From Escherichia phage p000v: DNA of 64,000 nucleotides. The notes under the pieces were generated by a model that ran no database searches, was not told where the DNA came from, and saw only the letters and a program-made list of their open reading frames with translations. The DNA is taken from sequence record NC_055781.1, one strand, 5' to 3'. Of the stretch, positions 13,841 to 44,552 are shown one piece after another (position 1 is the stretch's first letter; the number at the start of each line of letters is the position of its first letter). A program made the translations under genes and the position numbers.

Positions 13841-16552
13841 ATGAAAGAATTTTACTTAACGGTTGAACAGATTGGTGATTCAATTTTTGAACGTTACATC
13901 GATTCTAATGGCCGTGAACGTACTCGTGAAGTAGAATATAAACCATCACTGTTTGCTCATTGTCCGGAAAGTCAGGCTACGAAATATTTTGATATCTACG
14001 GTAAGCCGTGTACTCGTAAACTATTCGCTAACATGCGTGATGCGTCTCAATGGATTAAACGCATGGAAGATATCGGACTTGAAGCACTTGGCATGGACGA
14101 TTTCAAATTAGCGTATTTGTCTGACACTTATAACTATGAAATCAAATACGACCATACAAAAATTCGTGTGGCTAACTTCGACATCGAAGTAACATCTCCG
14201 GATGGGTTCCCTGAGCCGTCACAAGCAAAACATCCTATTGATGCTATCACCCATTATGACTCAATTGACGACAGGTTCTACGTATTTGATCTATTGAATT
14301 CTCCATATGGTAATGTAGAAGAATGGTCTATTGAAATCGCTGCTAAGCTTCAAGAACAAGGTGGTGATGAAGTTCCATCTGAAATTATCGATAAAATCAT
14401 TTATATGCCGTTCGATAACGAAAAAGAATTGTTGATGGAATATCTCAACTTCTGGCAACAGAAAACTCCTGTCATTTTGACTGGATGGAACGTTGAGTCA
14501 TTTGATATTCCATATGTGTATAACAGAATCAAGAATATTTTTGGCGAATCTACTGCGAAACGTTTATCACCACATCGTAAAACTCGTGTTAAAGTTATCG
14601 AAAACATGTATGGTTCTCGTGAAATCATTACATTGTTCGGTATCTCTGTTCTTGATTACATTGACCTTTACAAAAAATTCTCTTTTACCAATCAACCGTC
14701 GTATTCTCTGGATTACATTTCAGAATTTGAATTGAACGTTGGTAAACTGAAATATGACGGCCCTATTTCTAAGCTTCGTGAAAGCAATCACCAACGATAT
14801 ATTTCTTATAACATCATCGACGTGTATCGTGTATTGCAAATTGATGCTAAGCGCCAGTTCATCAACTTGAGTTTGGACATGGGTTATTATGCTAAGATAC
14901 AGATTCAATCTGTGTTCAGCCCAATTAAAACATGGGATGCTATTATTTTTAATAGCCTTAAAGAGCAGAACAAGGTGATTCCACAAGGTCGTTCTCACCC
15001 GGTTCAACCTTATCCTGGCGCTTTTGTTAAGGAACCTATTCCAAATCGATACAAATATGTAATGAGTTTCGACCTTACATCTCTGTATCCAAGTATTATT
15101 CGCCAAGTGAATATTAGCCCAGAAACAATAGCAGGAACGTTTAAAGTAGCTCCATTGCATGATTATATTAACGCAATCGCTGAACGTCCTTCAGATGTGT
15201 ACAGCTGCTCTCCTAATGGCATGATGTATTATAAAGACCGTGATGGTGTAGTTCCAACTGAAATCACTAAGGTCTTTAATCAACGTAAAGAACATAAAGG
15301 TTACATGCTTGCAGCTCAACGTAATGGTGAAATAATTAAAGAGGCATTGCATAATCCTAATCTTTCTGTTGACGAACCATTAGATGTTGATTATCGTTTC
15401 GACTTCACTGATGAGATTAAAGAAAAGATTAAAAAGTTGTCTGCTAAATCTCTTAATGAAATGTTGTTCAGAGCTCAACGTACTGAAGTTGCAGGTATGA
15501 CTGCACAAATTAACCGTAAATTGCTTATCAACTCACTTTATGGTGCACTTGGAAACGTTTGGTTCCGTTATTACGATTTGCGTAATGCAACTGCAATCAC
15601 AACATTTGGTCAAATGGCTTTACAGTGGATTGAACGTAAAGTTAATGAATATCTGAATGAAGTTTGTGGTACAGAAGGTGAAGCTTTCGTTCTTTATGGT
15701 GATACAGACTCTATTTACGTATCTGCAGATAAAATTATTGATAAGGTTGGTGAATCTAAATTCCGTGATACCAACCATTGGGTGGACTTTTTAGATAAGT
15801 TTGCACGTGAACGTATGGAACCGGCTATTGATAGAGGTTTCCGTGAAATGTGTGAATACATGAACAATAAACAACACTTAATGTTCATGGACCGAGAAGC
15901 TATCGCTGGTCCTCCGCTCGGTTCTAAAGGTATTGGTGGATTCTGGACTGGTAAGAAACGTTATGCATTAAACGTGTGGGATATGGAAGGTACTCGTTAC
16001 GCTGAGCCTAAACTCAAAATCATGGGTCTAGAGACTCAGAAATCTTCGACCCCTAAAGCAGTACAGAAAGCTCTTAAAGAATGTATTCGTCGTATGCTTC
16101 AAGAAGGTGAAGAATCATTACAAGAATATTTTAAAGAGTTTGAAAAAGAATTCCGTCAATTGAATTATATTAGCATCGCGTCGGTATCTTCTGCGAATAA
16201 CATTGCTAAATATGACGTTGGTGGATTCCCTGGTCCTAAATGCCCGTTCCATATTCGTGGAATTCTGACATATAACAGAGCTATCAAAGGTAATATTGAT
16301 GCTCCACAAGTTGTAGAAGGCGAAAAGGTATACGTTCTGCCTTTACGTGATGGAAACCCGTTCGGTGATAAATGTATCGCATGGCCTTCTGGTACTGAAA
16401 TCACAGATTTAATTAAAGACGACGTACTTCATTGGATGGACTACACTGTTCTCCTTGAGAAGACATTTATTAAACCACTTGAAGGATTCACATCAGCAGC
16501 GAAACTCGATTACGAGAAGAAAGCATCTCTGTTCGATATGTTCGATTTTTGA
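13841..16552 (+). CDS. 43: DNA polymerase gp43 (family B, with 3'-5' exonuclease)
   Basis: 903 aa; exo motif FDIEV, polymerase motifs DLTSLYPSII, KLLINSLYG, YGDTDS; sequence matches RB69 polymerase as recalled. Confidence 0.97.
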   Translation: MKEFYLTVEQIGDSIFERYIDSNGRERTREVEYKPSLFAHCPESQATKYFDIYGKPCTRKLFANMRDASQWIKRMEDIGLEALGMDDFKLAYLSDTYNYEIKYDHTKIRVANFDIEVTSPDGFPEPSQAKHPIDAITHYDSIDDRFYVFDLLNSPYGNVEEWSIEIAAKLQEQGGDEVPSEIIDKIIYMPFDNEKELLMEYLNFWQQKTPVILTGWNVESFDIPYVYNRIKNIFGESTAKRLSPHRKTRVKVIENMYGSREIITLFGISVLDYIDLYKKFSFTNQPSYSLDYISEFELNVGKLKYDGPISKLRESNHQRYISYNIIDVYRVLQIDAKRQFINLSLDMGYYAKIQIQSVFSPIKTWDAIIFNSLKEQNKVIPQGRSHPVQPYPGAFVKEPIPNRYKYVMSFDLTSLYPSIIRQVNISPETIAGTFKVAPLHDYINAIAERPSDVYSCSPNGMMYYKDRDGVVPTEITKVFNQRKEHKGYMLAAQRNGEIIKEALHNPNLSVDEPLDVDYRFDFTDEIKEKIKKLSAKSLNEMLFRAQRTEVAGMTAQINRKLLINSLYGALGNVWFRYYDLRNATAITTFGQMALQWIERKVNEYLNEVCGTEGEAFVLYGDTDSIYVSADKIIDKVGESKFRDTNHWVDFLDKFARERMEPAIDRGFREMCEYMNNKQHLMFMDREAIAGPPLGSKGIGGFWTGKKRYALNVWDMEGTRYAEPKLKIMGLETQKSSTPKAVQKALKECIRRMLQEGEESLQEYFKEFEKEFRQLNYISIASVSSANNIAKYDVGGFPGPKCPFHIRGILTYNRAIKGNIDAPQVVEGEKVYVLPLRDGNPFGDKCIAWPSGTEITDLIKDDVLHWMDYTVLLEKTFIKPLEGFTSAAKLDYEKKASLFDMFDF

Positions 16553-16592
16553 TATAATGCCATGGACGGTAAACTAATTAAATGAGAGAAAT

Positions 16593-17228
16593 ATGAAAAC
16601 TACACCAATCACTATCGCTATTGACGCAATCGTAAAACAAGCTTCATCTCTTGCCACTATGGCTAAAGTAATTAGTCAAAACTCTGCCCGATATAATGCT
16701 ATTCTTGAAACTCTTCGTCGCCCTGGACTGAGTAATTATGAAAGCCGAGTAATTATTACAGGTGTTGGTAAGAACGCTAATATCGCAACTAAAGCTTCCG
16801 AGACTTTTGCTTCACTAGGTATTCCTAGCATGTATTTGAACACCGGGCATTATTCTCATGGCGACGCAGGATTTATTGCACCTAATGATGTATTAGTTCA
16901 CATCAGTCGTTCTGGTAAGACTGAAGAAATGATAGGTGTTGCTAAACATCTTCGTATGATTCGTCCTCAGGTTAAACAGATTCTGTTACATTGTAACCCT
17001 GACATTCCGCAAGAATACGAAGCTCTTTTTGATTATACGTTCTGTACAGGCATCGCGGTAGAGGTTGATGAGAATTCTCTGGCTCCGACCATGTCCACTA
17101 CATTGTTGTTAGCGCTTATCGATACGTTTGCTATCAACCTTTCGTCTGAACGTGGATTTACCTCTAATGACTTCCTTAAGTTCCACCCTGGTGGTGCACT
17201 AGGTGCCATGTTACGAGGCGAACAATGA
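16593..17228 (+). CDS. SIS-domain sugar-phosphate isomerase, arabinose-5-phosphate isomerase-like (KdsD/GutQ N-domain type)
   Basis: 211 aa; VIITGVGKNANIA, HISRSGKTEE and C-terminal HPGGALG motifs typical of A5P isomerases; no CBS domains. Confidence 0.75.
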   Translation: MKTTPITIAIDAIVKQASSLATMAKVISQNSARYNAILETLRRPGLSNYESRVIITGVGKNANIATKASETFASLGIPSMYLNTGHYSHGDAGFIAPNDVLVHISRSGKTEEMIGVAKHLRMIRPQVKQILLHCNPDIPQEYEALFDYTFCTGIAVEVDENSLAPTMSTTLLLALIDTFAINLSSERGFTSNDFLKFHPGGALGAMLRGEQ

Positions 17229-17368
17229 AAGCAATAACAATAGGACTTTTACTATTGATGCTTGTCATGACTATCTACTGGAGCTTAACGGCTCCAGTAA
17301 TGATTCCGACTCTTATAATCGGATGGATTATGATTGGACTACAAGCAAAGTATGAATGCTTTAACTAG
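17225..17368 (+). CDS. small two-helix membrane peptide (47 aa)
   Basis: ATGA overlap with isomerase stop; MKAITIGLLLLMLVMTIYWSLTAPVMIPTLIIGWIMIGL; below ORF-track cutoff. Confidence 0.35.
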   Translation: MKAITIGLLLLMLVMTIYWSLTAPVMIPTLIIGWIMIGLQAKYECFN

Positions 17369-17381
17369 AATAGTGTACAAT
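17357..17381 (+). promoter_or_regulatory. MotA-dependent middle promoter upstream of the nucleotidyltransferase-kinase gene
   Basis: TGCTTTA box, 12-nt spacer, TACAAT -10; 28 nt before the ATG at 17410. Confidence 0.5.
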
Positions 17382-17409
17382 ACACCTACTTACCAATGAG
17401 GACTTCAAC

Positions 17410-19095
17410 ATGAAAAAAGCTGTTATTCTTGGTGCTGGACTGGCAACTCGTTTGTATCCAATAACGCACCATATTCCTAAGGTGCTTGTTAACTATAAAC
17501 AAGACACTATTCTGAGCAATTTGTATACAATTTATTCTGACCTTGGCGCAGATGAAATTATTGTAGTAGTTCATTCAAAATTTGCTGAAACTGTTCGAGC
17601 TTATTGCGAGCAAGAAGGGTTCAATGTGACTATTCGTACAGTTGATGAAGCGTATGGTTCTGCTTATGCTCTTGCTAAATTATACAAAGATTTAGATGGC
17701 CATAACGTAATTGTTAACTGGTGTGATATTATTCCTGACTTTGGTTCATGGTCTTGGAATGTTAACGCAATCTATGTTAAGGGTGATGAATGTCGATATA
17801 ATTTCGATGGTGAAAATATCACTAACGTAGGTTCAACAGGTGGTAATGTTGTAGGAATTTATCAGTTCAAAGACTGGGAATTCTACATGGGTTCTACTGA
17901 TGAGGAAATTCACGAATACTGCAAAGGTCGTGATTTCGTAGAATTCCTTTACGGCAGTGCATTCAATAAATCAGAGCTTATGAATCTAATTGATTTAGGT
18001 GATATGCCTAAACTTGAAAAGGCTCATGAAGTTCGTGAACTGAATCGTAGTTTTAATGCAGTTGAAATTGGCGAAGAAACTGTAACTAAATTCGCGTTAA
18101 CCGAACAAGGTCGAGCTCTTCAAAAAGATGAGATTTCATGGTATTTGAAAGTGAAATCAGATTCAGTTCCTCAGTTAGTTTCGGTAAATGAAAATAATTT
18201 TGAAATGGAACGTATTAAAGGTAAGCCGGCATTTGAATATATTAAATCCAAATCAAGTCTTGCTCGTCCACAAATTGTTGATGCAATTTTAGATGCACTG
18301 AAATTCAGCACGGACACTTATTTTGTAAGTCCTGAAACTGTTCGCCGTGATTTCACTAAAGAGTTCTATACGAAAGTTATTGATCGTTGTGAAAGCATTC
18401 AGCCATTGATTGATTCATTTGGTAAAATCACACGTGTGAACTACACTAAGATTGGACGTCTGAAGCCAATGTTGAAACAAGCTTTAGAACATCTTATTCG
18501 TTATCATAACCGTTCTCAGGGACAGTACTCTGTTATTCATGGTGACCCGAACTTCAGTAATACTATGATTACCGATAACGGCGAAGTCAAGTTTATCGAC
18601 CCTCGTGGATATTTTGGTGAAACCAAGATTTACGGGCCAAAATTGTATGATGAAGCTAAAGTGCTTTATGCTGTTTCAGGTTATGATGAATTCAATGCTA
18701 ATCCGACCTGGGGTCAGTTTACTATTGATGAAACAACTTGTAATGTGACTATTAACATCAATCCATTAGTTTACAAATATGGAAAGATGAGTTCGTTTAA
18801 CGAGTATCATCATTTGGCAGTAGCAATTATCTGGATTGCATTAGGTGGTTATTTCAAGAATAATCCACTTAAAGCGGTTGCCGCATATTATAAAGGTATG
18901 GAACTTCTGACTAAGCAATTACGTAACATGGGCCGTGTACTTCAAGACGGCTCTATTAGTTATGACGTAGCAGAACCTGTAACGGCTACTCTGATTACAA
19001 AAAATCCTGGTAAATGGGTACTAACTGATAAAGAAACTGGTGTTTCCTATCGTCCAATCGGCGGCGATATCACTCATCAATGGGAACGAATCTAA
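17410..19095 (+). CDS. bifunctional sugar-1-phosphate nucleotidyltransferase (N-terminal) / sugar kinase of APH-choline-kinase type (C-terminal)
   Basis: 561 aa; N-terminal KKAVILGAGLATRLYPIT (G-x-G-T-R-L-x-P-x-T nucleotidyltransferase signature); C-terminal HGDPNFSNTMI...IDPRG catalytic-loop-like motifs. Confidence 0.7.
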   Translation: MKKAVILGAGLATRLYPITHHIPKVLVNYKQDTILSNLYTIYSDLGADEIIVVVHSKFAETVRAYCEQEGFNVTIRTVDEAYGSAYALAKLYKDLDGHNVIVNWCDIIPDFGSWSWNVNAIYVKGDECRYNFDGENITNVGSTGGNVVGIYQFKDWEFYMGSTDEEIHEYCKGRDFVEFLYGSAFNKSELMNLIDLGDMPKLEKAHEVRELNRSFNAVEIGEETVTKFALTEQGRALQKDEISWYLKVKSDSVPQLVSVNENNFEMERIKGKPAFEYIKSKSSLARPQIVDAILDALKFSTDTYFVSPETVRRDFTKEFYTKVIDRCESIQPLIDSFGKITRVNYTKIGRLKPMLKQALEHLIRYHNRSQGQYSVIHGDPNFSNTMITDNGEVKFIDPRGYFGETKIYGPKLYDEAKVLYAVSGYDEFNANPTWGQFTIDETTCNVTININPLVYKYGKMSSFNEYHHLAVAIIWIALGGYFKNNPLKAVAAYYKGMELLTKQLRNMGRVLQDGSISYDVAEPVTATLITKNPGKWVLTDKETGVSYRPIGGDITHQWERI

Positions 19096-19481
19096 TGCAC
19101 CGTGTAGAAAACATGCTTAATCTTTGTTTTGATGTCGATGATTGTATAACAGAGTGGAATAACAATCGTGATTACGTGAACTTCAAACCAGACGTCGAAA
19201 TGGTGTCTGCCATTAATGCCCTGTATGATGCAGGGCATACCATAACGCTTTACACTGCCCGTGGTATGAAGTCGGTAGGTCCTGGTCGTATAGCAATTGA
19301 CATTCTCCCAAGTCTGATTCAGAACTTGGAAAACATTGGTTTGAAGTACCATAATTTGCTAACACATAAACCAGTATATGATTGGATTATCGACGACAAA
19401 GCTATGCGTCCTGACGAATTCAAAGCTCTTATGAATAAAGGCGAATTCGAAACATTTAAATCATATAAACCAAATCTATAA
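19095..19481 (+). CDS. small HAD-like phosphatase (putative)
   Basis: about 129 aa from ATG overlapping upstream stop (TAATG); FDVDDCIT resembles HAD motif I, WIIDDK resembles motif IV; capless. Confidence 0.45.
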   Translation: MHRVENMLNLCFDVDDCITEWNNNRDYVNFKPDVEMVSAINALYDAGHTITLYTARGMKSVGPGRIAIDILPSLIQNLENIGLKYHNLLTHKPVYDWIIDDKAMRPDEFKALMNKGEFETFKSYKPNL

Positions 19482-19538
19482 TAATTTAAGTAAGACCTGC
19501 AAAAACCATCGCATCAATTAACGCGAGATGCAAAAAAA

Positions 19539-20699
19539 ATGAATACTTTTAAAATCGGAACGAATTTTGATTTAGCTCTTCTTGATAAAATCGTAGAGCT
19601 CAATAAAACCTATCCTAATAGCTTGATAAACGAAGTATATGGCTCTACAAGAGAAATGGCTTTTGTAGCAGCCAGACCTGATTTTAGGCTTCCTGACGTT
19701 GACAAAAAGATGTTAGAAGACTACGTTAAACGTTGTAACGAATTAGGTATTTGCTTTAACTATACACTCAACACGATAAATCCTGGTTCAAAAAGAGAAC
19801 TAGTTGAGTGGAAGAAGAAAGCTATTCAGGATTATGTTCAGTATCTTTGGTCAATAGGCGTATGGCGTATTACTATCGCTAACCCTGTTGTTATGGAAAT
19901 TGTTCGTGAAGTCAATAAAGATATTGAGATTGAAGTTTCAACAATTCTACATGTCGATGCGGTAACTCAAATCAAATACTTACATGACCAATATAACATC
20001 AAAAAGGTCTGTTGCGGAATTCATAAGAACCGTTCAGTTTCTTTCCTGAAGCGTGCAGCAGAGTTTTGCAATAAGAACAATATAATATTTGAAGTTCTTG
20101 TAAATGAGTTCTGTTCTAATGCTGGTAAAGGGTATACAACACATTGTAGTTATCGTGACTCTTGCTATATTTTCCATAGTACTGATGTTACCGCTGATGA
20201 TGCTAAATCCTTAAATGGATATCCTATGCAGCACTGTATTAAAGCTCGTGATACAGACCCATTTAACTGGTTGAGAACTCGTTTTGTTCGTCCTCAAGAT
20301 TTGAAACTTTATAATGATATTGGTATCACTCAATTCAAAGTTTCAGGACGTACAGGTAGCACAGACTACATTTTGAAAGTTCTTGAAGCATACGCTTCTG
20401 AAAAGTTTGAAGGTAATTTGTTAGAACTGTGGAAGCCTTTAGAGACTATTTTCACTCTTGAAAATGAGACTGAGTTTTCACATACAGTAAATATTGAAAC
20501 CTCTTTGTTAGATGGCTTTTTAGAAAAAAGGTGGTTCAGACATCCAGATTTTGATTGTGCTAATGAAATCTGTGGGTCAACGTGTACATATTGTGAAAGG
20601 TATTATAAACGTCAATTATCTAAAAACGGGTTAGCAGAAAACTCCATATCTATTATTGATATAACTAACTCTGATGACGCTTTGAGGTACCCGGAATGA
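19539..20699 (+). CDS. Cys-rich protein, possible U32-family TIM-barrel/Fe-S enzyme
   Basis: 386 aa; motif order FKIGTNFD, NEVYGS, YTLNT, EVLVNEFCSNAGKGYTTHCSYRDSC resembles peptidase-U32 signatures by eye; C-terminal CANEICGSTCTYC Cys4 cluster. Confidence 0.35.
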   Translation: MNTFKIGTNFDLALLDKIVELNKTYPNSLINEVYGSTREMAFVAARPDFRLPDVDKKMLEDYVKRCNELGICFNYTLNTINPGSKRELVEWKKKAIQDYVQYLWSIGVWRITIANPVVMEIVREVNKDIEIEVSTILHVDAVTQIKYLHDQYNIKKVCCGIHKNRSVSFLKRAAEFCNKNNIIFEVLVNEFCSNAGKGYTTHCSYRDSCYIFHSTDVTADDAKSLNGYPMQHCIKARDTDPFNWLRTRFVRPQDLKLYNDIGITQFKVSGRTGSTDYILKVLEAYASEKFEGNLLELWKPLETIFTLENETEFSHTVNIETSLLDGFLEKRWFRHPDFDCANEICGSTCTYCERYYKRQLSKNGLAENSISIIDITNSDDALRYPE

Positions 20700-20935
20700 T
20701 TTCTAGAAAAAGTTTTAATTATAAACTTAACGAAGAGATTTTGACTATGAAACTGAACACTAACGAACAAATTCTTAAAAAGGCCCTTATGGGCCTGTTT
20801 GAAACCAAAGCGGCTAAAGTGATTAAAGAACCTGTTCAATTGGAATACTACGCTGATGCATTTCTTCATAGTGTTCTTGGAAGTATCGATGCTGAAGCTT
20901 TACGTTATATCAACATTGTCAAGAAATTCAAATAA
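20696..20935 (+). CDS. hypothetical protein
   Basis: 79 aa; ATGA overlap with upstream gene; not hydrophobic, so not Imm-like. Confidence 0.4.
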   Translation: MISRKSFNYKLNEEILTMKLNTNEQILKKALMGLFETKAAKVIKEPVQLEYYADAFLHSVLGSIDAEALRYINIVKKFK

Positions 20936-20958
20936 GCTTTACGAATTGAGTATATAAT
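20935..20958 (+). promoter_or_regulatory. middle-promoter-like element upstream of gene 42
   Basis: AGCTTTA box, 11-nt spacer, TATAAT; 20 nt before the ATG at 20978. Confidence 0.4.
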
Positions 20959-20977
20959 AAATTGTATTGAGGTAAAC

Positions 20978-21694
20978 ATGGGAAAACATAACACAATGAA
21001 ATATATCAAAGCCGCAGATTTTCAAACCGCATTTAAAGCAGTCAATCGTGAAATTTTAGAAAACCCGGAATTCGTAACTGATTCTCGTATTGGACGTTGT
21101 AATGAAATTGGGTCTATGACAGTAGTTGTTGACACTCCATCATCATTCAAAATGACCGACCCACGTATTAACCGCATCTCTTATGAATATGCCGAAGACT
21201 TCTGGAAGTTTATGATTTCTGGTGGTACCAACGCAGAAGAAGCGTTTAAGGCATATCCTAATGTCGCTAAATTTATTTCTAAACCAAAATCAGATGTTTT
21301 GCCGGCGAACTTCAACACTTTCTATGGTCCTCGCATTGCGGCCCAATTACCAACTCTTCTAAAAGAACTTAAAGAGAAGCCTAACTCCCGAAGAGTTGTG
21401 TTCCAAATTCTAGAAAGTTCTGATCAGGCTTTGCTTGATTCGGACGAAACACTTGAATATCCATGTACTGACTCAGTAACTTATTATATTCGTGATGGTA
21501 AGCTTTATACCCACTGTCATATGCGTTCTCAGAACTGTGCTGTTGTTATGCAGTTGGATTTTTATCTCCAAGGAAAATTACTTCATTATATCGCTAACGA
21601 ATGCGGTGTAGAAGTTGGTGATTATACTCATACCATGGTAAGTGCCCATGTGTTTGAACGTGATTTTGATTATGTTAAAGGATTCCTTGACTAA
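20978..21694 (+). CDS. 42: dCMP hydroxymethylase gp42 (thymidylate-synthase fold)
   Basis: 238 aa, close to T4 gp42 length; assigned by position after gene 43 and size; no catalytic motif checked by eye. Confidence 0.85.
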   Translation: MGKHNTMKYIKAADFQTAFKAVNREILENPEFVTDSRIGRCNEIGSMTVVVDTPSSFKMTDPRINRISYEYAEDFWKFMISGGTNAEEAFKAYPNVAKFISKPKSDVLPANFNTFYGPRIAAQLPTLLKELKEKPNSRRVVFQILESSDQALLDSDETLEYPCTDSVTYYIRDGKLYTHCHMRSQNCAVVMQLDFYLQGKLLHYIANECGVEVGDYTHTMVSAHVFERDFDYVKGFLD

Positions 21695-22593
21695 TGGCTA
21701 TTTTCCGCGTACCAATCTTGAGTATGCGGTCTTATGAAACTGGACAGTATGCTATCCTTAAGGATGGCAACTTCCAACTTCATTTGCACCGTGCTAATCC
21801 GGGTGATGTGATTACATATCCACGTAATGCATCTGATATTAAAGAATGCGAACGTCTTTTCCCAGAATTTAAGTTTGTTCCATTATGGTATAAAGATAAC
21901 GCGTATAACACTCGTAAATATTTCTGGACTGAAAATGAATTTGTGGTTGATTCATTAATTGATTATTATGATTGTGATTTTCTAATCACAGATATCACTG
22001 GTTATGGTGGCGCTTTTGATGTGGAATTCAATTTCAATATCACTGCAGACCCTAATAAACCACGTTTTTATATTGATGAATTCTTAAAAACCGACATGTT
22101 GTCTGTTAATCGTTCACTTCAAACTACTGTGTTGAATGAACGTCAAAAAGAAGTGCTGGTTAACGCAGGTGCAGATGGTAATAAGATTATCGTAACGCAG
22201 AAAGTTATACGTCCTTCCATCATGCAGCGTCTTGTAGGTGATTTGGCTCCTATTCATCTAGATGGTATTTTTCATCCATTTCGAATTAGTGACCCATGTT
22301 ATCGTTTTGAACAAGTGGTTGAATGTGCAATTCAATTAGGTCAACCGCTTTATATAACCGATCCAAATAATAGCTTCGACAGAAATAAGTATCCTGAAGA
22401 AGCGCTGATTCGAATTTTTAAACCAACTAAAACTGAGTACTATCAAATTCTTAAAGGACGTCCGAAAATTCAATATTTCGAAAATCCTGAAGAAGTATTC
22501 CATCCAGGTCTTGGTGAGTTCATCTACTTTAATGCTTTAATTTCTTCGCCGTATAATATACCTAAATACGAAGATGTCGTAATCGAGGAATAA
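21694..22593 (+). CDS. hypothetical protein occupying the T4 beta-glucosyltransferase slot
   Basis: 299 aa; TAATG overlap with gene 42 stop; no resemblance to T4 beta-gt seen by eye. Confidence 0.45.
   Translation: MAIFRVPILSMRSYETGQYAILKDGNFQLHLHRANPGDVITYPRNASDIKECERLFPEFKFVPLWYKDNAYNTRKYFWTENEFVVDSLIDYYDCDFLITDITGYGGAFDVEFNFNITADPNKPRFYIDEFLKTDMLSVNRSLQTTVLNERQKEVLVNAGADGNKIIVTQKVIRPSIMQRLVGDLAPIHLDGIFHPFRISDPCYRFEQVVECAIQLGQPLYITDPNNSFDRNKYPEEALIRIFKPTKTEYYQILKGRPKIQYFENPEEVFHPGLGEFIYFNALISSPYNIPKYEDVVIEE
22533..22557 (+). promoter_or_regulatory. MotA-dependent middle promoter inside the 3' end of the 299-aa gene
   Basis: TGCTTTA box, 12-nt spacer, perfect TATAAT; 38 nt before the ATG at 22595. 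Confidence 0.5.
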
Positions 22594-22594
22594 A

Positions 22595-23143
22595 ATGGCT
22601 AAAATTATTTTAGTAGATGGCCCGGATAATGCCGGTAAAACAACTTTCATTAATGACATAATGGAAATTAGTGAAAGATATGTAAAGATTGATTTCCCTA
22701 AACGAACAGTTGATGGACGTTTCGATGTTAAGTCTCGAAATGAAGTTGGCTGTTTCGAAACGATGTTGAATTATTTAGACCCTACTAAGATTTATCTGTT
22801 AGACCGTGGATATATTAGTAACTGGGTTTATGGACGTATTCGACAAGATGCGGACTCGATTCTTGACGTTTATGAACAGGACTATGTTCGTCTTTGCCAA
22901 AACCATGATGTGTTCACAATTATTTTAACACGTAACGAAATGACTGAAAGTTTTGAAGACGACCTTATTACTTTGTCTTCATTCGGTTTTAATACAGTCA
23001 TTTCACATTTTGAAGAGTTTGCAATTCATAACAAAATCCAAACATATCAATTACTTAATCATGATGGTGCTAACAAAGTTATAGGATTTAATGCAAGCGA
23101 ACGTAATGGTTTGATTACAGAAATCATCAAATGGGCTCGTTAA
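22595..23143 (+). CDS. P-loop nucleotide/nucleoside kinase-like protein (thymidylate-kinase-like fold)
   Basis: 182 aa; Walker A VDGPDNAGKTT and DR motif LLDRGYISNWVYG. Confidence 0.55.
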   Translation: MAKIILVDGPDNAGKTTFINDIMEISERYVKIDFPKRTVDGRFDVKSRNEVGCFETMLNYLDPTKIYLLDRGYISNWVYGRIRQDADSILDVYEQDYVRLCQNHDVFTIILTRNEMTESFEDDLITLSSFGFNTVISHFEEFAIHNKIQTYQLLNHDGANKVIGFNASERNGLITEIIKWAR

Positions 23144-23164
23144 GAGCCTGTTTAAAGTTTTAAA

Positions 23165-23189
23165 TGCTGTATAACCCTTAGTATATAAT
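23165..23189 (+). promoter_or_regulatory. middle-promoter-like element upstream of uvsX
   Basis: TGCTGTA box (one mismatch), 12-nt spacer, TATAAT. Confidence 0.4.
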
Positions 23190-23242
23190 CGTTTTATCTT
23201 TTAAACATGAGTAAAATATAATGATGCCTATGGAAAAATACA

Positions 23243-28035: not shown

Positions 28036-28329
28036 ATGAAAAAGTTATCATTGGCAGCAATCCTACTTGCAGTATCATGTGCACCGGCTCCAGTTACGGC
28101 AGGTTATGATAAAGACCTCTGTGAGTGGTCAATGACTGCAAATCAAGAAGATGTTGAACAACAAATCTTCTCTGATATCATGAACATCACTAAACGAGAC
28201 CGTCCTAATATGGTTAATAAAGTTGTTGAACAACTTAAGTCTGGCGGTATCATGCAGTACAACTATGTTTTGTATTGTGACCCTAATTTCGATAACAAAG
28301 ATATCGTAACCGAAATCACAGGTGAATAA
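28036..28329 (+). CDS. sp: secreted/periplasmic protein, Spackle (Sp)-like
   Basis: 97 aa with N-terminal signal peptide (MKKLSLAAILLAVSCAPAPVTAG); size and position between 41 and 61 match T4 sp. Confidence 0.45.
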   Translation: MKKLSLAAILLAVSCAPAPVTAGYDKDLCEWSMTANQEDVEQQIFSDIMNITKRDRPNMVNKVVEQLKSGGIMQYNYVLYCDPNFDNKDIVTEITGE

Positions 28330-28330
28330 T

Positions 28331-28981
28331 ATGATTTATTATATGCACAAAAACGCGCCATTTAAATATGGTAAATTTCCTAATGCACAATGTTATAATA
28401 TAACGCCGAATGAAAATAATAACGGATACCATATTGGTGTAATTTTTGTAATTGTTAAAGATAACGAAATCGTTGCCTGGGCAGATTTTAAAGGTACAAC
28501 ATATGATGTTAATCCTGTGCCTTTCACATATTACAATATAATGGATTTGGCATATGATTATAATTGGTTTACTCATGACACGTTGGCTCATATTGAAGGT
28601 GTAGGATTTGACATCTCTTATTCTAGCTATTCGTTACGTCCTATGAGCCGAGCTCACGGTAAAGATGTATCATATCTTTCAATTCGGAAACGTGTAAACT
28701 TCAAACGTAGTACAGAGTATGTTGGTGGACTCTTTGTTAAAGATAATAAAATAACCCGTATTAGTTATCCTTTAAGTGTAGATCAAAAAGATGTTGATGT
28801 TGATTTAGTCTTAACTGAAAGTAACATTAATCGTATTGCTTCTGTATATTTTGATATCAATGAAAAAATTGTAGTGTGTGGATACGAATTACCACTTGAA
28901 GAAAAGGCTGAAGCAATTGAAGTCGAATTAGAAATTTCTGTTGATGACCAAATATTTAATGCATTTATGAATCGAGGTTAA
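28331..28981 (+). CDS. hypothetical protein
   Basis: about 216 aa from the ATG right after the upstream stop. Confidence 0.4.
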   Translation: MIYYMHKNAPFKYGKFPNAQCYNITPNENNNGYHIGVIFVIVKDNEIVAWADFKGTTYDVNPVPFTYYNIMDLAYDYNWFTHDTLAHIEGVGFDISYSSYSLRPMSRAHGKDVSYLSIRKRVNFKRSTEYVGGLFVKDNKITRISYPLSVDQKDVDVDLVLTESNINRIASVYFDINEKIVVCGYELPLEEKAEAIEVELEISVDDQIFNAFMNRG

Positions 28982-30923: not shown

Positions 30924-31011
30924 AATATCTCCTTAGTTACCTATTATTTATTACGCTTTATAAAATTAATGTTAGAATTAACTCTCTTATACTGAATTGA
31001 AAGGAAAAATA

Positions 31012-31533
31012 ATGGCACACTTTAACGAATGTTCACAACTTATTTCTGGTGTTGATAAAGCAGAAGAAGCTTATTTTAATGCTCTGATTCACGAAGATAA
31101 AGACCCACTGCAGGTAATGCTTGATATGCAGAAATCTTTACAGGTTCGTCTGGCAAATGACAAGCCTGAACATAACAAACATCCTGATGAATTGGCCACT
31201 GCTGGTGATGTTGTTGATTGGCTGCGTAATCAGAAAGATTATATTGATGATGAATTTCGTGAACTGCTGACTTCACTTGGTGGTATGAGCAACGGTGAAA
31301 AAGCCGCCAGCAGTGTATGGAAGCCGTGGAAGGCACAACACGCTGAATATCGAAATCGTCGTATCGATGAACTGTCTCCTGAAGACCAGCTCGAAATTAA
31401 ATTCGAAATGATTGATATTCTGCACTTCGTTCTGAACATGTTCCAAGGTCTGGGTCTTTCCGCTGAAGAAATCTTTAAACTTTACTACTTGAAAAACCAA
31501 CACAACTTTGAACGTCAGGATAATGGTTACTGA
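31012..31533 (+). CDS. 56: dCTP pyrophosphatase gp56 (MazG-like)
   Basis: 173 aa from ATG at 31012; T4 gp56 size; MazG-like helical acidic motifs. Confidence 0.8.
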   Translation: MAHFNECSQLISGVDKAEEAYFNALIHEDKDPLQVMLDMQKSLQVRLANDKPEHNKHPDELATAGDVVDWLRNQKDYIDDEFRELLTSLGGMSNGEKAASSVWKPWKAQHAEYRNRRIDELSPEDQLEIKFEMIDILHFVLNMFQGLGLSAEEIFKLYYLKNQHNFERQDNGY

Positions 31534-40791: not shown

Positions 40792-42612
40792 ATGATTAAA
40801 AATGAAATTAAGGTATTGTCGGATGTAGAACATATTAAGAAACGTAGTGGCATGTATATTGGTTCTTCTGCTAAAGAAGCCCACGAGCGTTTTTTGTTTG
40901 GTAAATATCAACAAGTTGAATATGTTCCTGGTCTGGTTAAATTAATCGATGAGATTATTGACAACTCGGTTGATGAAGCTATTCGTACATCATTTAAGTT
41001 TGCAAATAAAATTGATGTGCAAATTAAAAATAATCAAGTTTCGGTGGAAGATAACGGACGTGGTATTCCTCAAGGTTTAGTTACCGACCAAACAGGTGAA
41101 CAAATTCCTGGGCCTGTAGCAGCCTGGACTATTCCAAAGGCCGGTGGTAACTTTGGTGATGACTCTGAACGTAAGACTGGTGGTATGAACGGCGTCGGGA
41201 GTAGTTTAACTAATATCTTCTCTACGTTGTTTACAGGCATCACGTCAGATGGCGAAAATGAAATCACTGTTAACTGTTCAAACGGAATGGAAAACAAATC
41301 ATGGTCTTCTAAGAAATCTAAAGGTAAAGGCACTAAAGTAATCTTCACTCCTGATTTCACTTCATTTGAAGAGCATAATTTATCTCAAATTTATTTAGAT
41401 ATTACTTTAGACCGACTTCAAACATTGGCAGTCGTTTATCCTGATATCAAGTTCACATTTAATGGTAAAAAGGTCGATGGTAATTTTAAACGATTTGCTA
41501 AACAATTTGGTGAAGATAACATCATTCAAGAAAATGATAAAGTCTCTATAGCATTCACAACATCACCAGATGGCTTCCGTCATTTAACTTATGTGAATAA
41601 CATCCATACTAAAAATGGTGGACATCATGTTGAATGTGTAATGGACGATATCTGCGAACATCTTTTGCCGGGTATTAAAAAGAAATATAAGGGTATTGAA
41701 GTCACTAAAGCTCGTGTTAAAGAATGTCTCACAATGTTGATGTTTATTAGAGACATGAGCAACATGCGTTTTGATTCTCAGACTAAAGAACGTTTAACGT
41801 CAACGTACGGTGATATTCGTAATCATATCCAATTAGATGCTAAGAAAATTGCTCAGGCACTTCTTAAAAATGAAGCCTTGATTATGCCTATTGTTGAAGC
41901 AGCATTAGCTCGTAAATTGGCGGCAGAAAAGGCTGCAGAAACTAAAGCAGCTAAAAAGGCAACTAAAGCTAAGGTTCATAAGCATATTAAAGCTAACCAA
42001 TGTGGTAAAGATGCAGATACGACATTGTTTTTAACAGAAGGTGATTCGGCAATTGGATATCTCATTGATGTTCGTGACCGTGAACTACATGGTGGATTCC
42101 CATTACGTGGTAAGGTGATGAATAGCTGGGGTATGTCATATGCTGATATGATGAAGAACAAAGAGCTCTTTGATATCTGTGCTATCACGGGTCTTATTCT
42201 TGGTGAAAAAGCAGAGAATACGAACTATCGTAATATTGCAATTATGACCGATGCCGATCATGACGGCCTTGGAAGTATTTATCCTGCTTTGCTTGCTTTC
42301 TTTAGTAATTGGCCTGAATTGTTTGAACAAGGACGTATTCGCTTTGTTAAAACACCTGTAATTATTGCACAAATTGGCAAAACTCAAAAATGGTTTTATA
42401 CTGTAGCTGAGTATGAAGAAGTTAAAGATACACTGCCTAAGCATAGTATTCGATACATCAAGGGATTGGGCTCACTTCAGCGGGATGAATATAAAGAAAT
42501 GATTCAAAACCCTGTGTACGACGTAGTTAAACTTCCTGAAAATTGGAAAGAACTATTTGAAATGCTCATGGGTAACGACCCTGAACTCCGTAAAGATTGG
42601 ATGCTAGGATAA
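40792..42612 (+). CDS. 39: DNA topoisomerase II large subunit gp39 (GyrB-like), uninterrupted
   Basis: 606 aa; GHKL ATPase region (IDEIIDNSVDEA) and TOPRIM (LFLTEGDSA, IMTDADHDG); no split into 39 and 60. Confidence 0.9.
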   Translation: MIKNEIKVLSDVEHIKKRSGMYIGSSAKEAHERFLFGKYQQVEYVPGLVKLIDEIIDNSVDEAIRTSFKFANKIDVQIKNNQVSVEDNGRGIPQGLVTDQTGEQIPGPVAAWTIPKAGGNFGDDSERKTGGMNGVGSSLTNIFSTLFTGITSDGENEITVNCSNGMENKSWSSKKSKGKGTKVIFTPDFTSFEEHNLSQIYLDITLDRLQTLAVVYPDIKFTFNGKKVDGNFKRFAKQFGEDNIIQENDKVSIAFTTSPDGFRHLTYVNNIHTKNGGHHVECVMDDICEHLLPGIKKKYKGIEVTKARVKECLTMLMFIRDMSNMRFDSQTKERLTSTYGDIRNHIQLDAKKIAQALLKNEALIMPIVEAALARKLAAEKAAETKAAKKATKAKVHKHIKANQCGKDADTTLFLTEGDSAIGYLIDVRDRELHGGFPLRGKVMNSWGMSYADMMKNKELFDICAITGLILGEKAENTNYRNIAIMTDADHDGLGSIYPALLAFFSNWPELFEQGRIRFVKTPVIIAQIGKTQKWFYTVAEYEEVKDTLPKHSIRYIKGLGSLQRDEYKEMIQNPVYDVVKLPENWKELFEMLMGNDPELRKDWMLG

Positions 42613-43409
42613 TGAATTATCGTAAAATTTATGATAAACTTATCGCTGCGGCTAAAAACCGCAGCACTATTCCTAATTATACTGAAACTCACCATATTTT
42701 GCCTAAATCTATGGGTGGGAGTAATGCTAAATCAAATCTAGTTAAAATGACCCCTAGAGAGCATTTTATCGCCCATTTATTGCTTTATAAAATTCATAAG
42801 AACCGTTCTATGCTTATGGCTATTAGAGCTTTTTACATGGGAGCTAGAAATTCTAGAGATTATGATTGGCTTAAACAAGAATTCTCTAAAGAGCACTCTA
42901 GATTTATGAAAGAATGGATTGCTAAAAATGGCAACCCATTTAAAGGTAAAAAACATACTAAAGCAACAAGAGAATTAATGTCACATATTGCTTCACAACG
43001 TATAGGCGAATTAAATCCGTTTTATGGTAAAACTCATACGCAAGAAGCAATAGATAAAATAATACAGGCCAACAAGTTATCTTGGGAGAATGGGCGAAAA
43101 GCACCTGTAAAAACAAAAGAACACCAGGATAAAATAACTAAATCAAGAATGGAAACATTTAAAACAAAAGGATTTAAACCATACACTCCTAGGTCGGAAG
43201 AAACTAAAGCTAAGACTAGAGAGTTGTATAAATCTAAATATGAAAGAAGGCCTATAAGAATCACAAGTGTAAAAACAGGTGAAACTATTGATTTTAACTA
43301 TCTTTATGAATTAAGGGAGTATTTAGGTATAGGGTCTTCTAATATATTGAAAGCATTAAATAATCCTAACAGAACCTGCAAAGGTTATAAAATGTGTTGG
43401 ATGTCCTAA
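42612..43409 (+). CDS. HNH homing endonuclease with NUMOD3 repeats (freestanding mobile gene)
   Basis: HNH motif ETHHILPKSMGGSNAKSNLVKMTPREH; repeats NPFKGKKHTKATRE and NPFYGKTHTQEAIDKI; ATG overlaps gene 39 stop. Confidence 0.8.
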   Translation: MNYRKIYDKLIAAAKNRSTIPNYTETHHILPKSMGGSNAKSNLVKMTPREHFIAHLLLYKIHKNRSMLMAIRAFYMGARNSRDYDWLKQEFSKEHSRFMKEWIAKNGNPFKGKKHTKATRELMSHIASQRIGELNPFYGKTHTQEAIDKIIQANKLSWENGRKAPVKTKEHQDKITKSRMETFKTKGFKPYTPRSEETKAKTRELYKSKYERRPIRITSVKTGETIDFNYLYELREYLGIGSSNILKALNNPNRTCKGYKMCWMS

Positions 43410-43451: not shown

Positions 43452-44552
43452 ATGAAAGTTATGTTTATCCCATCTCGCGCAGTCCCATTTAACCCAGAAC
43501 GTGTACAAGGTGGTCTTGAAGCAGTACATTTAAATGTATTGAAATATCTTGTGTCCATCGGTGCTGATATTGATTATATCGGCTTTGATAATGACACGTT
43601 TGGTGACTGGAAGGTTAATCATCATCCTGTTGGTCATCTGACTAAATTCAGTCTAGGTATGAGTTATACTATGGCTCGTAAGATTGTTGAACTAGCCGGC
43701 ATCCATGAATACGATTTTGTTGTTACTATGGAACCGACTAAACTAACCGTTCAGGCAATTAAAGACGCAGGTCTCTCTAAAGTTCATAAGAATTTTATGG
43801 CAACACCATTTGAACCGGTATCTCGTGGCATTGTTCAAATTTGGGACCAGACTATTCAAATTCATAAGAATGGTGGTAAGAGTTATGCTCCTACTAAAGC
43901 CTTCCGTGAATTTGAACGCAAATATTGTTATATGACTTCAGGTCTGACTGACAAAATTGATTATGATTATTGGCGAGCAAATCCGTTGTTTGAAGCCGAA
44001 GATTATCCGGTTATTTGTTTGACTGAAAAGCCAGAAGTTCTTCCGGCGACGGATCTGATTATTAGTGCACAACGTTATGACACTAAAATGCGTCGTACTG
44101 ATGTTGCTCTTGAAGCGATTAAAGCACTAGGCGAAAATGGTGCAGGATACTGTCCTAGTAAATGGGCACCACCAGCTAAATATCCTGTTATTATTGATGC
44201 TCCACACAGCGAAATCATGGAACGTCTTAAAACAGCTAAAGCACTTATCAATACGTGTCCTGACACGGGTACGGTAGAGAATAGTTCTATTGAAGCCATC
44301 TCTAAAGGTGTCCCTGTGATTCAGTTAGTTTTTAAGGATTATCCGCACGCGACATTCGAATATGACCCAGATACTGTGCGTGTAGAAATTGATTCCTCTA
44401 CTCCTAAGAAAGAAGTAGTTGCGCTTTACACAAAAGCTGTATTAGAATTCACTGACACATACGAAGCTCGAGTTAAACGTGCTGAAGCAGTATGGAAGAA
44501 GTATAACCGAGATGCAGTTGTTGCGATGTGGGATAAAATCTTCACAGCGTAA
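43452..44552 (+). CDS. GT-B fold glycosyltransferase (GT4-like), candidate DNA hydroxymethylcytosine arabinosyltransferase
   Basis: 366 aa; N-terminal MKVMFIPS...GGLEAVHLNVLKYL and C-terminal TGTVENSSIEAISKGVPVIQ resemble the GT4 E-x7-E/PVI motif. Confidence 0.65.
   Translation: MKVMFIPSRAVPFNPERVQGGLEAVHLNVLKYLVSIGADIDYIGFDNDTFGDWKVNHHPVGHLTKFSLGMSYTMARKIVELAGIHEYDFVVTMEPTKLTVQAIKDAGLSKVHKNFMATPFEPVSRGIVQIWDQTIQIHKNGGKSYAPTKAFREFERKYCYMTSGLTDKIDYDYWRANPLFEAEDYPVICLTEKPEVLPATDLIISAQRYDTKMRRTDVALEAIKALGENGAGYCPSKWAPPAKYPVIIDAPHSEIMERLKTAKALINTCPDTGTVENSSIEAISKGVPVIQLVFKDYPHATFEYDPDTVRVEIDSSTPKKEVVALYTKAVLEFTDTYEARVKRAEAVWKKYNRDAVVAMWDKIFTA

Follow-up and report, generated by a model that had tools for sequence, protein, structure and literature searches.

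What would a T4-like phage do with a sugar kinase and a sugar-1-phosphate nucleotidyltransferase joined in one polypeptide? The question is raised by an open reading frame (ORF) at positions 17410-19095, on the plus strand, of a 64,000-nucleotide (nt) stretch of Escherichia phage p000v (NC_055781.1), the whole of which we call the window. Our analysis leads us to conclude, with good confidence, that this Mosigvirus fusion gene is orthologous to RB69 gp52:53 and encodes an AfhE-type bifunctional enzyme of a de novo route to uridine diphosphate (UDP)-alpha/beta-D-arabinofuranose, and that UDP-D-arabinofuranose serves as the donor for arabinosylating 5-hydroxycytosine in the phage DNA. The protein and its role are already known: their prediction dates from 2018, and descriptions followed in 2025-2026.

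The ORF starts with ATG, runs for 561 codons to a TAA stop at 19093-19095 and has a GAGGA ribosome-binding site 8 nt 5' of its start; scans of the DNA for sigma-70 promoters and terminators scored no better than shuffled sequence. The AlphaFold2 model of its product is confident (predicted local distance difference test (pLDDT) 92.2; predicted template modelling score (pTM) 0.90) and places a domain boundary near residue 205, separating a nucleotidyltransferase domain of ~205 amino acids (aa) from a kinase domain of ~300 aa (206-507), after which comes a 55-aa tail. The original prediction had correctly sized the kinase at ~300 aa, and its ~250 aa for the nucleotidyltransferase was too large. 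The N-terminal loop, G8-A-G-L-A-T-R-L-Y-P-I-T19...P23-K24 (nt 17431-17481, translation GAGLATRLYPITHHIPK), is that of a sugar-1-phosphate nucleotidyltransferase, its only literal deviation being Ala in place of the second Gly of 'G-x-G-T-R'. HGDPNFSN occupies aa 377-384 (18538-18561) and IDPRG aa 396-400 (18595-18609), the segment 18538-18609 that spans both kinase motifs translating as HGDPNFSNTMITDNGEVKFIDPRG; all of these motifs lie where they had been predicted. Pfam NTP_transferase (PF00483) matches aa 3-99 with 38.4 bits, passing its cut-off of 21.2, and the kinase families Fructosamin_kin, EcKL, RIO1 and APH, matching within aa 308-409 (most at ~350-405), all fall below their Pfam cut-offs. 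The profile search proposed for fixing the domain boundaries thus bore out the first domain and not the second, and structure prediction of the C-terminal half returned a kinase fold. Because the 50 best Foldseek matches of the full-length model were to the N-terminal domain only, the kinase domain was modelled separately. The top structural matches of the two domains include MurU, LicC and LicA, and folds related to the kinase domain include the anomeric kinases NahK, maltokinase and methylthioribose kinase. When the PDB was searched by sequence, neither the whole protein nor a kinase-domain profile brought up a close solved structure, the profile yielding catalytic-loop matches only. Judged by sequence alone, the kinase domain classes as a divergent family of its own.

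Conservation was assessed in an alignment of 40 homologs of 29-76% identity. Invariant residues comprise G10, R14, T19, K24, G83, W104, D106, D195, G197, D198 and K201 in the N-terminal half, and K227, E241, G378, D379, S383, N384 and D397-P-R-G400 in the C-terminal half, together with several other basic residues; 39 of the 40 homologs have H377. A nucleotidyltransferase fold with an intact loop and Lys for binding the nucleoside triphosphate (NTP) is present at the N-terminus, and at the C-terminus a kinase fold in which the catalytic residues Lys/Glu/HxD/Asn/Asp are intact, and the conserved residues read as the full catalytic complement of a predicted sugar-1-phosphate nucleotidyltransferase and protein-kinase-like phosphotransferase. 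Full-length homologs in 362 phage records, and motifs that stay the same in the alignment down to 29% identity, are far beyond what chance would produce. The central claim of the original prediction, that both activities reside on one polypeptide, is accordingly upheld by the ORF, the NTP_transferase match, the model and the invariant catalytic residues. The tail (aa 508-561) is modelled with lower pLDDT (51-85) and has no Pfam match; within the alignment it is kept in homologs of at least 38% identity and absent from those of jumbo phages and giant viruses.

These data bear on two other functional assignments. Labels such as 'bifunctional protein GlmU' and 'mannose-1-phosphate guanylyltransferase', which stand on orthologs in phage records, would imply a different sugar or nucleotide, and weak NCBIfam matches to both families do exist over aa 3-109. 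All of these matches, however, are far under their cut-offs (21.6 bits for GlmU, against 366.85), the C-terminal half has a kinase fold instead of the left-handed beta-helix acetyltransferase of GlmU, and the genomic context of an arabinose-5-phosphate isomerase and arabinosylated DNA argues against another sugar, making this assignment very improbable. Even less credible is the idea, put forward in the Thanatos paper and the early RB69 annotation, that the fusion protein is itself the glycosyltransferase that puts a pentose on cytosine. In its favor, a CDD match to 'glycosyltransferase family A' at the N-terminus has been noted in PMC6024577 and in the Thanatos paper, and the latter reports the Thanatos homolog TH1_060 (54% identical) as essential to growth of the phage. 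For the fusion gene, a transposon-mutagenesis preprint on LC53 and Bas46 gives no essentiality at the level of single genes. GlmU membership (TIGR01173, matching aa 3-104 only) was rejected on the bit score and the kinase fold, and the mannose-1-phosphate guanylyltransferase, glycosyltransferase and LicA/LicC (cytidine diphosphate (CDP)-choline) readings were also considered and rejected.

The identity of the gene is clear from comparison with RB69. The window belongs to an RB69-like Mosigvirus, with 6.7 kb (16500-23200) having 97.5-99.2% DNA identity to ~150 RB69-type (Mosigvirus) phages of Escherichia and Shigella. The fusion gene has 97.5% DNA identity to the RB69 RefSeq record, which contains one extra C at nt 655; when this is removed, 559 of the 561 aa are identical to RB69 ORF53_52c, the differences being Q233H and R342H. 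In the RB69 record (locus L010, NC_004928; 4595-6281 and 1098-1998), 1-nt insertions split both gp52:53 (C, nt 655) and gp46:47 (T, nt 545), whereas the corresponding ORFs are both intact in the window. Thomas 2018 (PMC6024577) had corrected the sequencing error, merging ORF053c and ORF052c into a single 561-aa, 64-kDa protein for which a role in UDP-arabinose metabolism was proposed. Apart from the error that splits the GenBank record, nothing of substance distinguishes RB69 gp52:53 from the window ORF. NAR 2026 (PMC13326640) equates RB69 gp52:53 with AfhE of phage HY126. RB69 gp52:53, HY126 AfhE, DLP3 gp82 and Thanatos TH1_060 (PHROG 4098) have family, length, two-domain architecture and gene neighborhood in common with the window protein, which phrog_4098 matches over its full length (aa 1-561, E 6.1e-294).

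The gene neighborhood points to the same function. Between T4-type flanks (clamp loader, RegA and gp43 polymerase upstream; UvsX and gp41 downstream), the fusion gene clusters with genes for an arabinose-5-phosphate isomerase, a HAD phosphatase, a ThyA-like 5-hydroxy-dCMP synthase and glycosyltransferases, the neighbors being 91-99% identical to RB69 gp55, gp51, gp50, gp49, gp48 and gp45 (see the table of features). The SIS protein also matches the NCBIfam models KpsF/GutQ (8.5e-32) and KdsD (3.4e-30), and is on these matches a predicted KdsD/GutQ-type isomerase converting ribulose-5-phosphate into D-arabinose-5-phosphate. The fusion gene and the HAD gene share letters of their stop and start codons (TAATG), and the HAD product matches TIGR01689, a capsule-biosynthesis phosphatase (E 1.9e-13); the phosphatase role of gp51-type HAD proteins is taken from PMC13326640, as are the GT-B assignment of the gp46:47-type transferase and the demonstrated activity of RB69 gp48 as a flavin-dependent 5-hydroxy-dCMP synthase. 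The ORF, both folds, both conserved catalytic sets, the near-identity to RB69 and the linkage to SIS, HAD and ThyA-like genes are all direct observations of the present analysis.

How the two domains might work together is suggested by published chemistry, from which we take the substrates, the order of steps, the UDP specificity (HY126 AfhE/AfhF) and the D-arabinofuranosyl (D-Araf) 5-hydroxycytosine product in RB69. AfhE is reported by Lee et al. (PMC13326640) as both a kinase for D-arabinose-5-phosphate and a pyrophosphorylase for UDP-D-arabinose, and the HAD enzyme AfhF as a Mg-dependent phosphatase that cuts the 5-phosphate of Araf-1,5-bisphosphate between the two AfhE steps. RB69 DNA carries beta-D-Araf-(1->3)-alpha-D-Araf ether-linked to 5-hydroxy-dC, not to hydroxymethyl-C, and DLP3 transferases accept UDP-Araf as donor in vitro. 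That TH1_060 is essential to Thanatos counts for the biosynthetic role too. We infer that the window ortholog behaves like HY126 AfhE and RB69 gp52:53. The adjacent SIS isomerase would then turn host ribulose-5-phosphate into D-arabinose-5-phosphate, and the C-terminal kinase domain would use ATP to phosphorylate the anomeric O1 of this sugar, yielding D-arabinofuranose-1,5-bisphosphate. After the bisphosphate has left the fusion enzyme, the translationally coupled downstream HAD phosphatase would take off the 5-phosphate, and the N-terminal nucleotidyltransferase domain would join the resulting Araf-1-phosphate and UTP to give UDP-Araf and pyrophosphate. Finally, the GT-B transferases encoded at 21694-22593 and 43452-44552 would add a first and then a second Araf to the 5-hydroxycytosine derived from the ThyA homolog. 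If so, the original prediction was right that a pentose is converted into an activated donor, but its consecutive, channelled steps probably do not occur given that the bisphosphate leaves the enzyme for dephosphorylation, and salvage of a free sugar is probably wrong given that the reported route proceeds de novo from ribulose-5-phosphate via the 1,5-bisphosphate.

Several points weigh against this assignment. Kinase and uridylyltransferase activities are reported, in PMC13326640, for HY126 AfhE only, and the order of the AfhE and AfhF steps comes from a secondary description there. The Thanatos homolog gave no product from xylose-1-phosphate with any of five NTPs, although this test used the wrong sugar. 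Moreover, the kinase domain is under every Pfam kinase cut-off and is without a close solved relative by sequence. Finally, Table 1 of PMC13326640 gives the other order, with the phosphatase first and then the kinase acting on free arabinose. This is the order of salvage, in which the HAD enzyme would make free D-arabinose from arabinose-5-phosphate, the kinase would convert it into arabinose-1-phosphate, and the N-terminal domain would activate the latter, with the domains acting consecutively. The gene content fits the salvage and bisphosphate orders equally, and the related folds NahK, maltokinase and methylthioribose kinase are anomeric kinases whose substrates are sugars without a phosphate. 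Fusions of consecutive activities are also the commoner pattern (AmgK/MurU, FKP). Nevertheless, the heptose pathway discussed at the end supplies a precedent for non-consecutive logic, and R213, R326, R399, K417 and K488, which lie outside the canonical kinase set and are invariant in the alignment, would fit an anionic substrate. We therefore regard salvage as unlikely, and favor the order through the 1,5-bisphosphate.

Table of features. Coordinates in the window, with the evidence for each assignment
Feature	Coordinates	Strand	Evidence or remarks
Predicted SIS-domain arabinose-5-phosphate isomerase (RB69 gp55 ortholog)	16593..17228	+	Pfam SIS E 9.6e-10; 203/211 aa identical to gp55
46-aa strongly hydrophobic ORF (MKAITIGLLLLMLVMTIYWSL...)	17225-17365		Between isomerase and fusion genes, overlapping isomerase stop
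Bifunctional kinase/nucleotidyltransferase fusion gene	17410..19095	+	561 aa; RB69 gp52:53 (ORF53_52c) ortholog, AfhE-type
N-terminal sugar-1-phosphate nucleotidyltransferase domain	17410..18024	+	aa 1-205; NTP loop G8..T19, K24; W104-x-D106; D195-x-G-D198..K201
C-terminal protein-kinase-like small-molecule kinase domain	18025..18930	+	aa 206-507; K227, E241, H377-G-D379, N384, D397-P-R-G400
C-terminal 55-aa tail	18931..19092	+	aa 508-561, TKNPGKWVLTDKETGVSYRPIGGDITHQWERI...; limited to T4-like phage clade
Small HAD-type phosphatase (RB69 gp51 ortholog, AfhF analog)	19095..19481	+	126/128 aa identical to gp51
Peptidase-U32-like protein (RB69 gp50 ortholog)	19539..20699	+	Pfam Peptidase_U32 E 7.3e-11; 383/389 identical to gp50
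Thymidylate-synthase homolog (RB69 gp48 ortholog)	20978..21694	+	Pfam Thymidylat_synt E 1.9e-15; 235/238 identical to gp48
Putative first DNA arabinosyltransferase (RB69 gp46:47 ortholog)	21694..22593	+	Intact 299-aa ORF; phrog_3891 E 1.6e-155
Thymidylate-kinase-like nucleotide kinase (RB69 gp45 ortholog)	22595..23143	+	phrog_761 E 9.7e-45; 179/182 identical to gp45
Putative second arabinosyltransferase (RB69 ORF003c ortholog)	43452..44552	+	363/366 aa identical to RB69p003

Among the remaining neighbors, the 46-aa ORF is labelled hypothetical in related phages. The two distant phage homologs examined have no peptidase-U32-like gene in their syntenic clusters, and in the literature the product of this gene is only a possible 'sugar or heterocycle reductase' (PMC13326640). 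The gp46:47 ortholog differs from RB69 DNA by 19 mismatches and the 1-nt insertion. The function of the ORF003c-type arabinosyltransferase was proposed in PMC6024577 and PMC13326640, and this protein would use the UDP-Araf that the cluster is predicted to make. Between its gene and that of the gp39 topoisomerase is a 270-aa ORF (42597-43409) with NUMOD3 motifs, homing-endonuclease-like, at a site that in RB69 is a gap of just 42 bp. The ORF at 30997-31533 (178 aa, TTG start) has a dUTPase_2/MazG-like C-terminus (29.4 bits) and probably encodes a gp56-type dCTPase that would feed dCMP to the modification pathway. In addition, a 219-aa ORF (28322-28981) matches Pfam AdfA (anti-DarT factor A) with E 1.1e-114.

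How widespread is such a fusion? By tblastn it is found in 372 of 50,697 phage records, and in full length in the 362 mentioned above, so the expectation that it would be unusual for a phage does not hold. The host genera of these matches are Escherichia, Shigella, Acinetobacter, Klebsiella, Serratia, Enterobacter, Yersinia, Proteus, Shewanella, Vibrio and Tenacibaculum. Synteny holds at 35% identity, in an environmental T4-like phage, where the order between gp43 and UvsX is SIS, fusion, 111-aa ORF, ThyA homolog, 296-aa ORF, kinase and dCMP deaminase, and in a 350-kb jumbo phage, where it is SIS ... GT2, fusion, HAD and ThyA homolog. At E <= 1e-30, a profile of the kinase domain detects 428 cluster representatives in a set of 1.84 billion proteins. 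In the best 150 of these 428, the nucleotidyltransferase-kinase arrangement of the fusion protein is seen in 78 and is extended by an extra C-terminal region in another 4; 40 are of kinase-only length (fragments included), 16 have a long N-terminal extension (kinase start at residue 580 at least, as in HAD-SIS-nucleotidyltransferase-kinase chains), and 12 have another architecture.

Some of these homologs are found in other settings. Chains of 890-1010 aa (P0087, P0088, P0089, P0091 and P0093; locus L002 8001-10781) have the order HAD_2, SIS, NTP_transferase and kinase, which Pfam confirms in P0087, with a significant NTP_transferase match; on its domain content, such a chain is predicted to carry every activity of the route from ribulose-5-phosphate to nucleoside diphosphate (NDP)-arabinose. 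As Rosetta-stone fusions, these chains also favor the pathway assigned to the phage cluster. The P0087 contig is giant-virus-like (MutS with HNH, RNA polymerase Rpb2, RNA_pol_N), and P0091 comes from a eukaryote transcriptome. The gene for a 30% identical homolog (P0111; locus L007 8001-9578) adjoins genes for HAD, sulfotransferase, Caps_synth glycosyltransferase and NeuB proteins, and no ThyA homolog is present within the 17.6-kb locus examined, which suggests that it acts in making glycans and not in modifying DNA. Variants of ~788 aa (P0109, P0110, P0112 and P0115) have a cupin-like region C-terminal to the nucleotidyltransferase-kinase core; in P0109 this region gives a weak match to the C-terminus of mannose-6-phosphate isomerase, and it may represent a different isomerase partner. 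We tentatively suggest that, beyond phage DNA modification, the nucleotidyltransferase-kinase module belongs to an undescribed route that supplies NDP-D-arabinofuranose, or a related pentofuranose, for viral or protist glycans. A second tentative reading is that the tail of the T4 clade docks the HAD phosphatase, the two enzymes then passing on the bisphosphate inside a complex. The four-domain fusions of giant viruses and eukaryotes, and the clade-specific tail, may be worth a look.

By supplying the sugar donor, the fusion enzyme serves a DNA hypermodification, arabinosyl-5-hydroxycytosine, that protects Mosigvirus, as well as many other T4-like phages, against restriction enzymes and alters their sensitivity to other defense systems, and that is relevant to phage therapy and phage engineering. 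The pathway having been published for RB69, HY126, DLP3 and relatives, the practical value of the window is correct annotation. Many fusion orthologs in GenBank are labelled 'GlmU', 'mannose-1-phosphate guanyltransferase' or 'hypothetical', and the neighboring HAD gene 'phosphoheptose isomerase'; the two enzyme names given to the fusion and the one given to the HAD gene are at odds with the evidence.

Comparison with known systems places the fusion between several precedents. 5-Methylthioribose kinase (MtnK), a stand-alone enzyme of methionine salvage, is 16-18% identical to the kinase domain over aligned residues. AmgK-MurU, an anomeric kinase for N-acetylmuramic acid (MurNAc) or N-acetylglucosamine with a MurNAc-1-phosphate uridylyltransferase, combines an APH/choline-kinase-like kinase and a minimal RmlA-like nucleotidyltransferase as the fusion does, and LicA-LicC (choline kinase and CTP:phosphocholine cytidylyltransferase) has the same pair of folds. 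Unlike the fusion, however, these are separate proteins catalyzing consecutive salvage steps on unphosphorylated substrates, and the NCBIfam MurU model scores 25 bits on the fusion against a cut-off of 250. FKP/AFKP80-type L-fucokinase (or D-arabinokinase)/GDP-sugar pyrophosphorylases of Bacteroides, plants and Leishmania do join an anomeric kinase and an NDP-sugar pyrophosphorylase in one chain, and those of Leishmania make NDP-D-arabinose, but they differ in having a GHMP-fold kinase, in using GTP and pyranose sugars, and in performing true free-sugar salvage; neither Pfam nor fold comparison gives a GHMP signal in the fusion protein. In its logic the route is closest to the pathway for adenosine diphosphate (ADP)-L-glycero-beta-D-manno-heptose, which employs the SIS isomerase GmhA, the bifunctional kinase/adenylyltransferase HldE and the HAD phosphatase GmhB. 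Here too a ketose phosphate becomes an aldose phosphate (SIS) and then an anomeric bisphosphate, the distal phosphate is taken off (HAD), and nucleotidylation follows, so that in both routes, as reported for AfhE, one bifunctional protein carries out the two steps, anomeric phosphorylation and nucleotidylation, that flank the action of the phosphatase. The sugar in the phage route, however, is a pentofuranose and the nucleotide UDP. Moreover, HldE consists of a ribokinase/PfkB kinase and a cytidylyltransferase-fold domain, whereas the fusion consists of a protein-kinase-like kinase and an RmlA/GalU-like transferase, with no PfkB or CTP_transf_like matches in Pfam or NCBIfam. Because the folds differ, the two bifunctional proteins are analogous and not homologous, and the fusion would, by this analogy, work like HldE without being a member of the HldE family.
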